Source: a virus. From it: DNA of 44,278 nt. Location of the stretch: the UHGV virus genome UHGV-0261880; one strand, 5' to 3'. Below, one piece after another: positions 6,959-32,761 of the stretch (positions are counted from its first letter, which is position 1; each line of letters starts with the position of its first letter). Under the pieces are notes generated by a model. That model ran no database searches, was not told where the DNA came from, and saw nothing but the letters and a program-made list of their open reading frames with translations. A program made the position numbers and the translations under genes.

Positions 6959-6987
6959 TTGCACACCCCAATATAATAGGGTACTAT
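6959..6987 (+). promoter_or_regulatory. Sigma70-like promoter TTGCAC-N17-TACTAT with embedded palindrome AATAG-ggta-CTATT
   Basis: TTGCACaccccaatataatagggTACTATtca about 30 nt upstream of the 7016 start; near-identical copies at 16871 (+), 29274 (-), 28141 (-). Confidence 0.5.
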
Positions 6988-7015: not shown

Positions 7016-7342
7016 ATGCGTAAATCAGTATTAGCTCTAGGGTTTATGTCTTTTTCTACCTTTGGGTCCCCGTGCGAACAGGTATTTAGTGAATCTGTTC
7101 TTATTACCTCTGGTGTACTTGAGAAAGCCGACCCTACTATTGTAAAGGCGTTTAAGGACTCTACTGTTCGCGAGTGTGAGGCTGCCGTAGAGGTTGGTAA
7201 ATCGGGCCTGCCTCCGCAAGCCGTAACATACTCTGTAATACGTTCGGTAGAGAAAAACGGAGACGCGTTTTACAGCCTACTGACAGCCACCCGTCTGCAA
7301 ATGGTAATGACTGGATGGGCAATAGGCGCAGAAAGTAAATAG
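7016..7342 (+). CDS. Small secreted/periplasmic protein (signal peptide), opposite-strand insertion in tail module
   Basis: 108 aa; N-terminus MRKSVLALGFMSFSTFGSPCEQ is a signal peptide; own promoter; encoded antisense to the surrounding tail genes. Confidence 0.6.
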   Translation: MRKSVLALGFMSFSTFGSPCEQVFSESVLITSGVLEKADPTIVKAFKDSTVRECEAAVEVGKSGLPPQAVTYSVIRSVEKNGDAFYSLLTATRLQMVMTGWAIGAESK

Positions 7343-16319: not shown

Positions 16320-16551
16320 GGGTAATTACCTCTGATTTCGTCTTGCCTTCGTTGTCGGCGGCTGCGGCCTTTGATTCGTCCTGCTGCTGCCGTTGTGTTT
16401 TCTTCGCCAGCTCAGCCTGTGCTTTCTGCTGTTGCTGCGAAACGAGATTCGCCCGGCCTTCGTTCCAGCCGCTGCGATACTGATAAATGCCGTGGGCGTA
16501 GACCAGGATGATGAAACAAGCTCCCGCTACGACAGTTGCTTTAAGATTCAT
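16165..16551 (-). CDS. Inner-membrane spanin (Rz-like)
   Basis: 128 aa; N-terminal TM segment VVAGACFIILVYAHGIY followed by Gln/Ala/Lys-rich predicted coiled coil; overlapped by lipoprotein ORF. Confidence 0.5.
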   Translation of the reverse strand: MNLKATVVAGACFIILVYAHGIYQYRSGWNEGRANLVSQQQQKAQAELAKKTQRQQQDESKAAAADNEGKTKSEVITREVVKYIKTPGRSVCTFDPERVQLKSRAVTNANSIPGYDDDAAAVQTGSAK

Positions 16552-16802
16552 GTTTCCCCTTTCTCGATAAGTAAAGCCCCGCCTTAAAGCGGGGCGCTAG
16601 TCCTTATCATTTAAACATAAAAACAGCGTAATCTCAGTAAACCCGTTACTTTTTACACAAGCAATAGAGTATGGCCCTTCCGAACGCGTCAGCGTAACTA
16701 CACTCAGGACTTACGTCCCGCTCCGTTACCTGCCCGCGCCGCGGTCGCTTGTTCATACTTCACAAGCTCAGGTGGAGCTTAGCACATTTTCAGTGAAAAG
16801 TC

Positions 16803-16818
16803 AACTATTCGAATAGTT
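16803..16818. promoter_or_regulatory. Perfect 16-bp palindrome AACTATTCGAATAGTT
   Basis: Contains the same AATAG/CTATT half-sites as the promoter-associated element but in everted arrangement; lies ~55 nt upstream of the 16871 promoter. Confidence 0.4.
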
Positions 16819-28829: not shown

Positions 28830-29023
28830 CCTCCCTCAGAGTCGTCAGCACGAGCATCATGATTCGATGCCGTTCGGAGCGCACGTAAAACTTTTAACAA
28901 GAGCTCACATGTCCCGGAAGAAATAGTCGGGCCGTCTAGCAAAACAACCTCGTATCTGTTTACCTGGAAATGCACCTTCTCTAGTCTATGATGTTTCAGT
29001 TCTTCAAATAATTCTTCCATCAC
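28820..29023 (-). CDS. Hypothetical protein
   Basis: 67 aa coupled ORF. Confidence 0.4.
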   Translation of the reverse strand: MMEELFEELKHHRLEKVHFQVNRYEVVLLDGPTISSGTCELLLKVLRALRTASNHDARADDSEGGCR

Positions 29024-29217
29024 TTCACCCCTTTGAATTTAAAATTGTTGCCGATGAGTTCTAAATTATCGCGTAAGGCGAACCCAGTTTTCTTTCTTAC
29101 CAGGCCCCATACGTCAACCAGATTATCCTGGTCATACTCGTTCTCGTCCTGCAACACTAATACATATTGCCCTCCACGTTTAGTTTTAGCCAATTGACCC
29201 TTCTTAAACATAACCAT
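29020..29217 (-). CDS. Hypothetical protein, first gene of leftward early operon
   Basis: 65 aa; ~30 nt downstream of the 29274 promoter. Confidence 0.4.
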   Translation of the reverse strand: MVMFKKGQLAKTKRGGQYVLVLQDENEYDQDNLVDVWGLVRKKTGFALRDNLELIGNNFKFKGVK

Positions 29218-29245
29218 CGCTCCTCGGTTTCGTTTTGATAAGTGA

Positions 29246-29274
29246 ATAGTATCCTATTATATTGGGGTGTGCAA
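29246..29274 (-). promoter_or_regulatory. Sigma70-like promoter TTGCAC-N17-TACTAT with embedded palindrome (minus strand), leftward early promoter
   Basis: Minus-strand reading TTGCACaccccaatataataggaTACTATtca, 31 of 32 nt identical to the 6959 plus-strand copy. Confidence 0.5.
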
Positions 29275-29708
29275 GAGAATAGTTACGTTGCCGTTGTGAT
29301 TCTTCAGGTAGGGTTGTGCCTTTATTCTTATTACTTGGTAACTAAAGGGCAGGCCCTAAGCCTGCCCAATAATCGTTACATTTTTACGGTTGCGAATCTA
29401 CGGCACTTTAAGAAAATCAGATACTTAAGATATATTCCGCCGATGGGAATAGAGCTTGCCCAGGGCAACCGGAGATACTTAGGAAGGAAAGTTACGATAA
29501 TTCGAATGTTCAGTAAACTGCCGCCTAACACTTCGCGTTGGGCGCTCGTTTTCGGCGGGTTTTACAAGGTGAACAGGAATCAAAGTAACTAAGATATAGA
29601 AGCACCTTAAACGAAGATTTTCTTAATGTCAATAGGTGCGATTATGTTTGATTTCCCATTATTCGCAATGTATACTTGGTTTCGTTAACTGATAATGGGG
29701 GTTTGAGA

Positions 29709-29879
29709 ATGACACAGAATGAAGTAGCCGAGCGTATTGGGGTTACCCGTCGCACGCTGAATAACTGGTTAAAGAGTGGGAAGTTCCCGGATTGTTGTAT
29801 CCGTATTATGGGCCGCCGGCAGCCGGGTACTTTCGACCCGGAGAAAGTGGAAGCGTGGATTAAGGAGAATGTAAAATGA
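29709..29879 (+). CDS. AlpA/excisionase-like HTH DNA-binding protein
   Basis: Track ORF trimmed to ATG (MTQNEVAERIGVTRRTLNNWLKSGKFP...); MerR/AlpA-type HTH pattern. Confidence 0.55.
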   Translation: MTQNEVAERIGVTRRTLNNWLKSGKFPDCCIRIMGRRQPGTFDPEKVEAWIKENVK

Positions 29880-30109
29880 CCGAGTTCCAGTCCCGCGTAT
29901 TTACGGCAGTCGTTTCATTAACCTGTAAAAAAGGGTCGTGCAGCGTTATGGACTTGCGCCGTAGTTATTTTAGGTACTATAGTTCCGCCATTATTGAAGG
30001 GTCGTTGAAGGTACTGGTTAAATCTGGTGTCGTGAAAAATGTTGGCGGGAAATATAGTGCTGTTGCCGAAGTTCGCGGAATGACCGCTACTTTAGAAGAC
30101 CTGGAATAA
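29876..30109 (+). CDS. Hypothetical protein
   Basis: 77 aa, start overlaps upstream stop. Confidence 0.4.
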   Translation: MTEFQSRVFTAVVSLTCKKGSCSVMDLRRSYFRYYSSAIIEGSLKVLVKSGVVKNVGGKYSAVAEVRGMTATLEDLE

Positions 30110-32435: not shown

Positions 32436-32463
32436 GTAAAAAGAAAGGGGCATTAAGCCCCTT
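32436..32463 (-). terminator. Terminator hairpin AAGGGGC-ATTAA-GCCCCTT with U-tract on minus strand
   Basis: Overlaps the stop of the XRE gene; plus-strand A-run 32436-32444 gives U-tract for minus transcripts. Confidence 0.5.
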
Positions 32464-32668
32464 CACCTAACGCCAGCCACTTGGCGTCTACTTCCAGCAC
32501 TTCCGCCAGTTTAAACAGCGTTGCCGGGCGGACGTCCTGAGTTACTCCGAGTGCAAGCTGATTAATTGCGCCCTGAGAAACTCCCGTCAGGACAGCCAGA
32601 CGGCGCTGGGAGATGCCGAGTTCTTTACGGCGCTGTTCTACACGGATGCCTAGTTCAGATGGTTGCAT
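32453..32668 (-). CDS. XRE-family (Cro/CI-type) HTH transcriptional regulator
   Basis: 71 aa; LGISQRRLAVLTGVSQGAINQLALG is a canonical HTH_3 pattern; TAAGGAG RBS. Confidence 0.7.
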   Translation of the reverse strand: MQPSELGIRVEQRRKELGISQRRLAVLTGVSQGAINQLALGVTQDVRPATLFKLAEVLEVDAKWLALGEGA

Positions 32669-32696
32669 GTCAATTACTCCTTAGTCAGTTGATATG

Positions 32697-32712
32697 TGAA
32701 TAGTACCATATT
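32697..32712 (-). promoter_or_regulatory. Operator-like palindrome copy overlapping the -10 (TACTAT) of the predicted XRE promoter
   Basis: TGAATAGTACCATATT on plus = ...TACTATTCA on minus, ~20 nt upstream of the XRE RBS; weak -35. Confidence 0.4.
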
Positions 32713-32732
32713 AATTATTTTAGAAAAGCCCA

Positions 32733-32761
32733 TTGACAAGTGAATAGTTGGCTATTATAGT
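32733..32761 (+). promoter_or_regulatory. Sigma70-like promoter TTGACA-N17-TATAGT with embedded palindrome AATAG-ttgg-CTATT
   Basis: Consensus -35, 17-bp spacer; 32 nt upstream of the 32793 start. Confidence 0.55.

Follow-up and report, generated by a model that had tools for sequence, protein, structure and literature searches.

The window analyzed here is the whole 44,278-nucleotide sequence of virus genome UHGV-0261880, a Kagunavirus-like phage of E. coli, and our subject is the stretch at 29275–29708 within it, which separates two divergent gene blocks and may hold an RNA-based control element. On its leftward side, the first gene occupies 29217..29020. The rightward block, on the plus strand, begins with a gene for a 56-residue HTH_17 protein (29709–29879), continues with one for a 77-residue protein (29876–30109), and has as its third listed gene that of a 755-residue helicase-primase with an AAA_25 domain. 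A preliminary description of this locus had proposed that it harbors either an origin of replication or a regulatory RNA, and had named conservation among related phages as one means of checking the proposal. A megablast search with 29100–29900 returned 258 phage records, all of them relatives of Escherichia Kagunavirus or Salmonella Jerseyvirus (Guernseyvirinae), and the segment 29290–29650 has matches in 361 phage records of these two groups; the stretch is indeed widely conserved. Our literature search found no paper that describes the region itself. The one RNA sequencing study of a Kagunavirus, on phage K1B4, gives gene-level classes only, with nothing on non-coding RNA, and places an HTH-domain gene among four early genes (PMC12645636). 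Alignments of the region drew on 44 loci from IMG/VR, 16 from metagenomes and 14 phages from GenBank; the metagenome loci are those usable from a 17-mer scan in which chance matches predominated.

Does the region encode a protein? It does not: it is truly non-coding, because the frames of its open reading frames (ORFs) are not conserved, because insertions and deletions fall within conserved blocks, and because annotators disagree about it. The absence of a credible ORF between the operons had been suspected from the window, and no conserved frame emerged when relatives were compared; close relatives exhibit breaks and frame-shifting indels, and 1-nt indels are present inside the most conserved blocks. 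The candidate ORF at 29242..29592, which the preliminary description had already discounted, is broken or shifted in relatives that are approximately 90% identical and is absent from other variants. In many variants, neither strand contains a frame as long as 50 codons. In GenBank, the stretch is either left empty or assigned differing small ORFs, and Jerseyviruses have 590–1000 bp without annotated genes at the corresponding position. A protein-coding ORF on either strand was therefore rejected.

A position-weight scan of 35 distinct variants identified three sigma-70-like promoters that are kept in essentially all of them. The first, P_R (TTGATT-17-TATACT, with TTGCTT as the upstream hexamer in some variants; 29648..29676, plus strand), is present in 35/35 variants and is predicted to drive the HTH_17 gene and the replication genes; it supplies the rightward promoter that had been expected in the region but could not be placed. 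The second, P_L, is the proximal leftward promoter (TTGCAC-17-TACTAT; −35 at 29274–29269, −10 at 29251–29246, minus strand). It had been recognized previously, is found in 34 of the variants, and drives the gene at 29217..29020. At its core is a palindrome, AATAGTATCCTATTAT (29245..29260), which contains the −10 element and forms the left border of the region; the opposite face of this palindrome presents a weaker rightward promoter (TTGATA-17-TATATT, 29235–29263). The third, P_L2, is a distal leftward promoter (TTGACA-17-TAAGGT; −35 at 29632–29627, −10 at 29609–29604, minus strand) that stands back-to-back with P_R. Its score, 13.2 bits, is comparable to that of P_R, and its predicted start lies near 29597. 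P_L2 occurs as TTGACA-17-TAAGKT or TTGACT-17-TAAGCT in 33/35 variants, despite flanks that cannot be aligned between variant types, and the one variant type left over has TTGAAA-18-TATAAT, likewise on the minus strand. This promoter is not listed by a simple consensus scan because only three of the six positions of its −10 element match. That scan did list a minus-strand candidate, TTGCGA-16-CATAAT (29668–29641), which is not conserved outside the window’s own group and was dropped. An 8-nt perfect inverted repeat, CCCATTAT/ATAATGGG (29655–29662 and 29692–29699), flanks the −10 element and start of P_R; its right arm is lost in most relatives.

Between these promoters, the region is pieced together like a mosaic from modules that can be exchanged, while its total length is conserved: the distance from palindrome to ATG is approximately 445–470 bp across unrelated variants. 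Leftmost is a conserved block (29240–29305). To its right lies a hairpin module, B, which has four unrelated versions: B1 (the one found here), B2, B3, and B4 (in Jerseyvirus). A universal linker, CGGCA...TCAGnnACTTAAG, conserved in all variants, separates module B from a middle module, M, of which M1 is found here and in Jerseyvirus and M2 and M3 elsewhere. Then follow a stem, T, of which at least six sequence versions exist, a short ACAAG motif, module R, which holds P_L2, and finally P_R. Whatever the version of B or of T, it folds into a hairpin in the same position, and B1 is nearly invariant between Kagunavirus and Jerseyvirus. Part of the conserved block, AGAGAATAGTTACGTTGCCGTTGTGATTC (29275..29305), lies between the B1 hairpin and P_L; alignment and folding indicate that its TGCCGT and GATTC can pair with ACGGCA (29399–29404) and GAATC (29392–29396), closing the B1 module, and the Jerseyvirus B4 variant has TGCC/GGCA and ATTCTT/AAGAAT at the corresponding places. 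The linker motif TCAGATACTTAAG (as RNA, AAGUAUCUGA; 29417..29429) is kept in all variants and marks the junction at which recombination joins B and M modules. In module B3, the copy number of a (GAGT)n microsatellite varies; relative L022 has three additional units, equivalent to a position near 29370, with no compensating change opposite them.

RNA read leftward from P_L2 is predicted to be strongly structured. A long 5′ hairpin domain (29490..29590, minus strand) has outer helices AGUUAC/GUAACU, UGAUUC/GAAUUA and UGUUCA/UGAACA, and within it lies the T hairpin (29513–29565) with stems GUAAA/UUUAC and CCGCC/GGCGG. A small hairpin follows at 29456..29468. This last element had been described as TTGCCC-A-GGGCAA; the hairpin is real, but a single-nucleotide loop cannot close a 6-bp stem, and the better reading is TTGCC-CAG-GGCAA, with five base pairs and a loop of three nucleotides. 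It is 100% paired in the covariation alignment. Just two changes were seen in it; as minus-strand RNA these still pair, as U·G or G·U, while plus-strand RNA would have A·C mismatches there.

Covariance analysis, another check that had been suggested for this locus, revealed compensatory changes in the hairpins. In an alignment of 23 window-type leaders, 98.2% of the cells in the T and small hairpins are paired. Cells changed on both sides number 31, compared with 9.1 in shuffles, and none of 500 shuffles reached as high a count. The covariation score is 0.243, vs. 0.02–0.09 in slid controls, and one pair occurs as AU, GC and UA. In the minus orientation, the leader hairpins have nine G·U cells and one A·C cell (counted after removal of the column pair 84–131, which is not a real pair). 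The strand-informative changes inside the predicted transcript thus favor the minus strand, and we consider that the RNA is most likely leftward, transcribed on the minus strand from P_L2 (29632–29604).

Folding calculations agree with such a transcript. The predicted RNA from 29597 to 29338 (minus strand) has a folding energy of −76 kcal/mol, vs. −60.2 ± 4.6 for shuffled sequences (z = −3.46), and the relative L139, which has a different T core, forms the same long 5′ hairpin (z = −3.40). Arbitrary windows of the region fold weakly (z = −1.1 to −1.6), the signal being clear only with the bounds of the predicted transcript. Such unremarkable folding, together with the free exchange of modules, is what one might see if the region were a mere promoter-bearing spacer whose hairpins have no function. 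We judge this explanation very improbable: the length of the stretch is held across unrelated variants, every variant keeps hairpins in the same places, the covariation is significant, and B1 is nearly invariant across two genera.

No known RNA class accounted for the structure. In Rfam 15, no family reaches its gathering score in the region, the best match being sbrA with 19.3 bits vs. a cut-off of 45 (E = 0.79). A hammerhead-like sequence, CCGAUGAG, was discarded on the grounds that its core misfits and that it has no Rfam match. A mimic of a CRISPR repeat was also set aside: no likeness to the type I-E and I-F repeats of E. coli was apparent, although no search aimed at such repeats was made. 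Finally, an attenuator-type switch in which GGCGG would pair with CCGCCGA (29439–29445) was rejected, as this pairing is not kept in relatives.

At the far end of the predicted transcript lies the B1 hairpin (29337..29379, minus strand). Its upper stem (29347–29367) is an 8-bp perfect inverted repeat, GGGCAGGC/GCCTGCCC, with arms at 29347–29354 and 29360–29367; this is the perfect GC stem-loop that the preliminary description had pointed out. A lower stem, GTAAC/GTTAC, is formed by 29338–29342 and 29375–29379. Taken alone, the upper stem is mildly unusual: when the region was shuffled 2000 times with its dinucleotides preserved, 77 of the shuffles contained a perfect 8-bp hairpin with a loop of 3–8 nt. 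For this reason, the conservation of the hairpin carries more weight than the hairpin itself. Among 16 distinct sequences compared, three have a compensatory C-G to U-A change (GGGCAGGU/ACCUGCCC) in the GC stem, and two, one of Kagunavirus type and one from Jerseyvirus, have an A-to-G change (GGGCGGGC) that can pair with GCCUGCCC only in a minus-strand RNA, by means of a G·U pair. On the minus strand, the GC-rich stem-loop is followed directly by a U-rich tract (GGGCAGGCTTAGGGCCTGCCC, then TTTAGTTACC); the tail, UUUAGUUACC (29346–29337; written CCCUUUAGUUACC in the comparison), is invariant in the 16 sequences. The tract is moderately U-rich, with U at five of its first seven positions. A terminator scan flags this hairpin on the minus strand only. 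The B1 hairpin with its U-tract therefore looks like an intrinsic terminator of the leftward transcript, and it is probably the end of that RNA rather than an isolated element. That the hairpins are plain bidirectional terminators was rejected, as the plus-strand U-tracts are missing in most variants.

A second arrangement of the same kind is found elsewhere in the window. The pattern TTGACW-N17-TAAGNT has exactly two copies in the 44 kb, both on the minus strand, vs. 0.02 expected; one is P_L2, and the other (TTGACT-17-TAAGCT, 16804–16776) begins a cassette at 16552..16818 (minus strand) that consists of a palindrome, this promoter, a leader of approximately 200 nt, and a terminator-like hairpin. 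The hairpin, GCCCCGC-TTTAAG-GCGGGGC followed by TTTACTTATC (16595–16576), ends 24 nt ahead of the start codon of the i-spanin gene, whose ATG is at 16551. In the annotation of phage Snoke, the downstream genes specify i-spanin, o-spanin, a scaffolding protein and the major capsid protein, i.e., the late operon. This late cassette is 92–97% conserved across Kagunavirus and Jerseyvirus, its leader folds with z = −3.09, and it has no match to an Rfam family. Both cassettes have their terminator-like call on the minus strand and share an order of elements: promoter, CUUGURA, UCUAUU, ACUGA, GC hairpin, UUUAnUUAnC. The tails thus compared are UUUAGUUACC at the region under study and UUUACUUAUC at the late cassette. 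A 16-bp perfect palindrome, AACTATTCGAATAGTT (16803–16818), overlaps the −35 element of the late promoter, with its center near −41.5; class II activators bind near position −41.5.

How are the two cassettes related? Kagunaviruses with modules M2 and R2 have an early intergenic stretch that is 77–88% identical to the late leader over approximately 143 nt, promoter included, and relatives L183 and L199 carry both copies, i.e., the early M2-type and the late leader. Among 18 late and M2 leaders, one pair of a long-range helix occurs as CG (8), UA (6) and AU (4), and the two G·U pairs that flank it are invariant in 18/18 sequences; on the other strand, these would be C·A mismatches. Hence, by sequence comparison, a clear paralogue of the late promoter-leader occupies this locus in sister phages, and the window appears to have an allelic version, M1/R1.

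From these data, we consider it moderately probable, somewhat above an even chance, that the region contains a promoter-leader-terminator control cassette on the minus strand that gates read-through by attenuation or antitermination. According to this scheme, the stretch would be the control region of two divergent operons, with P_R and P_L2 as a divergent promoter pair and with approximately 29632 to 29337 (minus strand) as one transcription unit. Leftward transcription would start at the sigma-70-type P_L2 and proceed through an untranslated, strongly folded leader of approximately 255 nt, after which the polymerase would meet the GC hairpin and U-tract at 29367–29337. There it would either stop, releasing a short non-coding RNA, or carry on beyond P_L into the leftward genes. 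In this way, the amount of leftward transcription that passes would be set by the leader and hairpin, while the leftward genes would also be served by P_L just downstream. Gating of read-through by the leader and hairpin is proposed by analogy with the late cassette, at which no other promoter stands between the hairpin and the genes.

The short RNA might instead act in its own right, the leftward transcript (approximately 29597 to 29340) being a free-standing small RNA that works in trans on host or phage targets. It would have its own promoter, a terminator-like end, a strong fold and, in B1, a 3′ module that is almost invariant between Kagunavirus and Jerseyvirus; its pyrimidine-rich CUUUCCUUCCUAAG could pair with ribosome-binding sites, and with P_L located between the hairpin and the first gene, leftward expression would not need read-through. 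We regard this explanation as unlikely, however. The paralogous cassette lies directly against the late operon with no promoter after its hairpin, which points to a role in cis; whole modules are replaced by unrelated sequence in sister phages, which is hard to fit with a fixed antisense target; and no Rfam family matches.

Several observations weigh against the control cassette as we have drawn it. The start, end and strand of the leader are predictions. The plus strand of the predicted-transcript span folds nearly as well (z = −2.56), and for this reason thermodynamics alone leaves the strand undecided. G·U pairs that favor the plus strand occur in a hairpin at 29310–29322 and in the B4 and B3 stems. 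A plus-strand RNA could be defined by the weak rightward promoter on the palindrome (29235–29263) and a stem followed by GUUUUAC (29521–29565). The U-tract is weak or displaced in three of the four hairpin modules (B2, B3 and B4), and the hairpin may accordingly not always terminate. A covariance model built from the late and M2 leaders matches the window at 29549–29638 with E = 9, which is not significant; this attempt at proving homology between M1 and the late/M2 leaders thus failed, and by this comparison the window’s M1 leader is not detectably homologous to either. What ties M1 to the late cassette is accordingly its position, the pattern of its promoter, the order of its motifs and the existence of M2 as an allelic variant. 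Lastly, no antiterminator or member of the Q family was found among five proteins scanned against Pfam and 16 against PHROGs; those of the right operon that were checked are replication and recombination enzymes, and an AlpA- or Q-like role for the neighboring 56-residue HTH_17 protein was rejected on its size.

The points on strand amount to a distinct alternative, in which a rightward, plus-strand non-coding RNA would run from the other face of the palindrome (start near 29270) to the GUUUUAC stem, antisense to the leader. Its promoter matches at 10 of 12 positions, a −10 element of this kind is present in most variants, and the stem resembles a terminator on the plus strand; to these are added the plus-strand G·U pairs named above. 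We nonetheless find such an RNA most improbable. In most relatives, the −35 element has decayed (TCGATA, CCGATA), and Jerseyvirus has none; several variants no longer have the U-run behind the stem (UUCUUAC, GUAUUAC, CUCUCAC); and of the changes that tell the strands apart in the T hairpin, the M hairpin and the stem of B1, most agree with the minus strand.

Does the proposed minus-strand cassette resemble any known control system? Its nearest counterparts in layout are two phage units. In the late control unit of lambdoid phages, the PR′ promoter is followed by a qut site, a 194-nt 6S RNA and the tR′ terminator, and the unit includes the Q antiterminator. The phage cassettes share with it a sigma-70 promoter, an untranslated leader of approximately 200–255 nt, and a GC hairpin with a U-rich tail, and the late cassette (16552–16804) has the arrangement of a late unit, standing directly upstream of the lysis and then the head genes. 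Hexamers resembling a −10 element follow the −10 of both promoters (TATCTT in the window’s region, TGAGCT at the late cassette); such hexamers are common in AT-rich DNA, and their likeness to sigma-dependent pause elements is no more than a resemblance. In contrast to lambda, no Q homologue is present among the phage proteins checked, and the leader is much more structured, with covarying helices. Furthermore, the copy under study points into a leftward operon of small genes, and its hairpin is followed by another promoter; antitermination is predicted here by analogy.

The second counterpart is phage HK022, whose put RNAs are cis-acting antiterminators of approximately 70 nt with two stem-loops, located downstream of two early promoters. 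Many Kagunaviruses likewise have two related structured RNA elements per genome (77–88% identical), each placed after a promoter and before a terminator-like hairpin. This likeness is one of layout, not of sequence comparison; the folded domains here measure 100–200 nt, and, whereas the put sites lie in two early operons, one copy here heads the late operon. With these parallels in mind, we tentatively raise a further proposal, doubtful as it is: both cassettes could be places where a processive antitermination system, so far undescribed, loads or acts, and this system would set the timing of late and leftward transcription in Guernseyvirinae. It might work through RNA, as HK022 put does, with RNA modules that can be exchanged, or it might need a phage protein that has gone unrecognized.

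A third system invites comparison on account of the adjoining HTH gene. In P. aeruginosa, AlpA causes antitermination at PalpB-tB, a promoter and intrinsic terminator ahead of lysis genes (PMC7969949, PMC9371919). Here, too, a promoter is followed by an intrinsic-terminator-like hairpin before lysis genes, and a gene for a small HTH protein of the “excisionase/AlpA-like” kind adjoins the element. AlpA, however, has eight helices, and the ring formed by its N-terminal part reaches into the RNA exit channel (PMC9371919). Because its action needs this ring, which a protein of 56 residues can hardly form, the HTH_17 protein is hardly AlpA-like in action; no AlpA-binding element was identified, either.

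We next consider the other half of the original proposal, that the region is or contains an origin of replication. In this case, the helicase-primase or some accessory protein would bind to the hairpins or short direct repeats, and the flanking promoters might provide activation. The view of the locus as that of a non-coding structured RNA is supported by the compensatory changes and by the promoter and terminator-like hairpin that bracket it, but the origin gained no positive support. It is true that the region adjoins the replication module and replicase gene, and that the cumulative GC skew has its global minimum near 29 kb. The minimum coincides with a switch in gene orientation, however, and is for that reason not independent evidence. 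The plus strand of the genome has four copies of the pattern RGWWACT(T)AR, all of them in this region (29337, 29419, 29473 and 29584), but the pattern was derived post hoc from these very copies, their spacing is irregular (82, 54 and 111 bp), and a single one persists in every variant. In the long 5′ hairpin, two of the copies each pair with the surroundings of the other.

Module exchange also bears on the origin. The B3 hairpin module and a distinct replicase type occur in exactly the same 20 phage records, a point in favor of an origin. Yet B1 and B2, which are unrelated, both accompany a replicase that is 96–99% identical, and B1 spans three replicase types; the association of B3 is consequently as well explained by linkage in a single lineage. 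(Besides the 20 GenBank records, B3 is found at loci L022, L025, L026, L031, L034, L043 and L125; the helicase-primase type that goes with it is 28% identical in the helicase domain.) Moreover, pairing rather than sequence is conserved, and covariation that includes long-range and G·U pairs is a signature of folded RNA, not of double-stranded binding sites. The homologous cassette ahead of the capsid genes lies far from the replication genes. A repeat search of the region yielded short two-copy repeats and no iteron array, and in 29200–29720 there is no DnaA box (allowing up to one mismatch), no IHF consensus, and no GATC, let alone a cluster of such sites. The most A+T-rich 30-mer in that interval, the linker at 29407, has 83% A+T. 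The region is thus probably not an origin, and we consider this explanation quite unlikely. In the whole 44,278 bp, GATC occurs nine times, far below the chance expectation; this scarcity suggests avoidance of Dam or of GATC-specific restriction.

Of the phages isolated for therapy and biocontrol of E. coli and Salmonella, Kagunaviruses and Jerseyviruses are some of the most frequent, and published genome papers list predicted promoters and terminators only. If the control cassette is as we propose, it would provide a concrete map of an early control region with three conserved promoters, would account for a 450–1000 bp “empty” stretch in hundreds of genomes, and would link that stretch, through a shared promoter-leader-terminator unit, to the switch to lysis and capsid genes. 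Late-gene control in the family would become directly testable, and spurious ORF annotation at this locus would stop. In the course of comparing records, we noticed that L002 (OR594180.1), which is Kagunavirus-like, is filed in GenBank under Autographiviridae/Kayfunavirus as “vB_EcoM”; this looks like an error of taxonomy. We also noticed that the gene for the 77-residue protein (29876–30109) always accompanies the M1/R1 leader variant, while phages with M2 or M3 have another small gene instead.

The palindrome at the core of P_L belongs to a motif that extends well beyond the region. Approximately nine copies are present in the window, vs. 0.22 expected, and their contexts fall into two promoter classes. 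The promoter-like sites (AATAGTAnnCTATTAT) are at 6973, 16885, 18803, 28112, 29245, 32699, 32743, 35257 and 39155/39157. Class I has TTGCAC-17-TACTAT on the opposite strand and stands ahead of the genes at 7016, 16932, 28081 and 29217; class II, at 32743, 35257 and 39157, is TTGACA-17-TATAGT with the palindrome inside the spacer. The relative L035 has a symmetric change (AGTAG..CTACT) in the palindrome, which hints at a dimeric DNA-binding regulator. The program PHIRE found the same palindromic motif (tgAATAGTa-ccTATTat-T) in Kagunavirus fBC-Eco01, where it was ascribed to a phage RNA polymerase (PMC9825357). The left border of our region (29245–29260) is one of the copies; in contrast to that assignment, the contexts in the window resemble sigma-70 promoters in which the palindrome lies within the spacer or beside it, and the motif covers only the edge of 29275–29708. 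Two of the copies (32699 and 32743) lie in the intergenic stretch 32436–32747, just after the helicase-primase gene, which is itself a candidate control or origin region.

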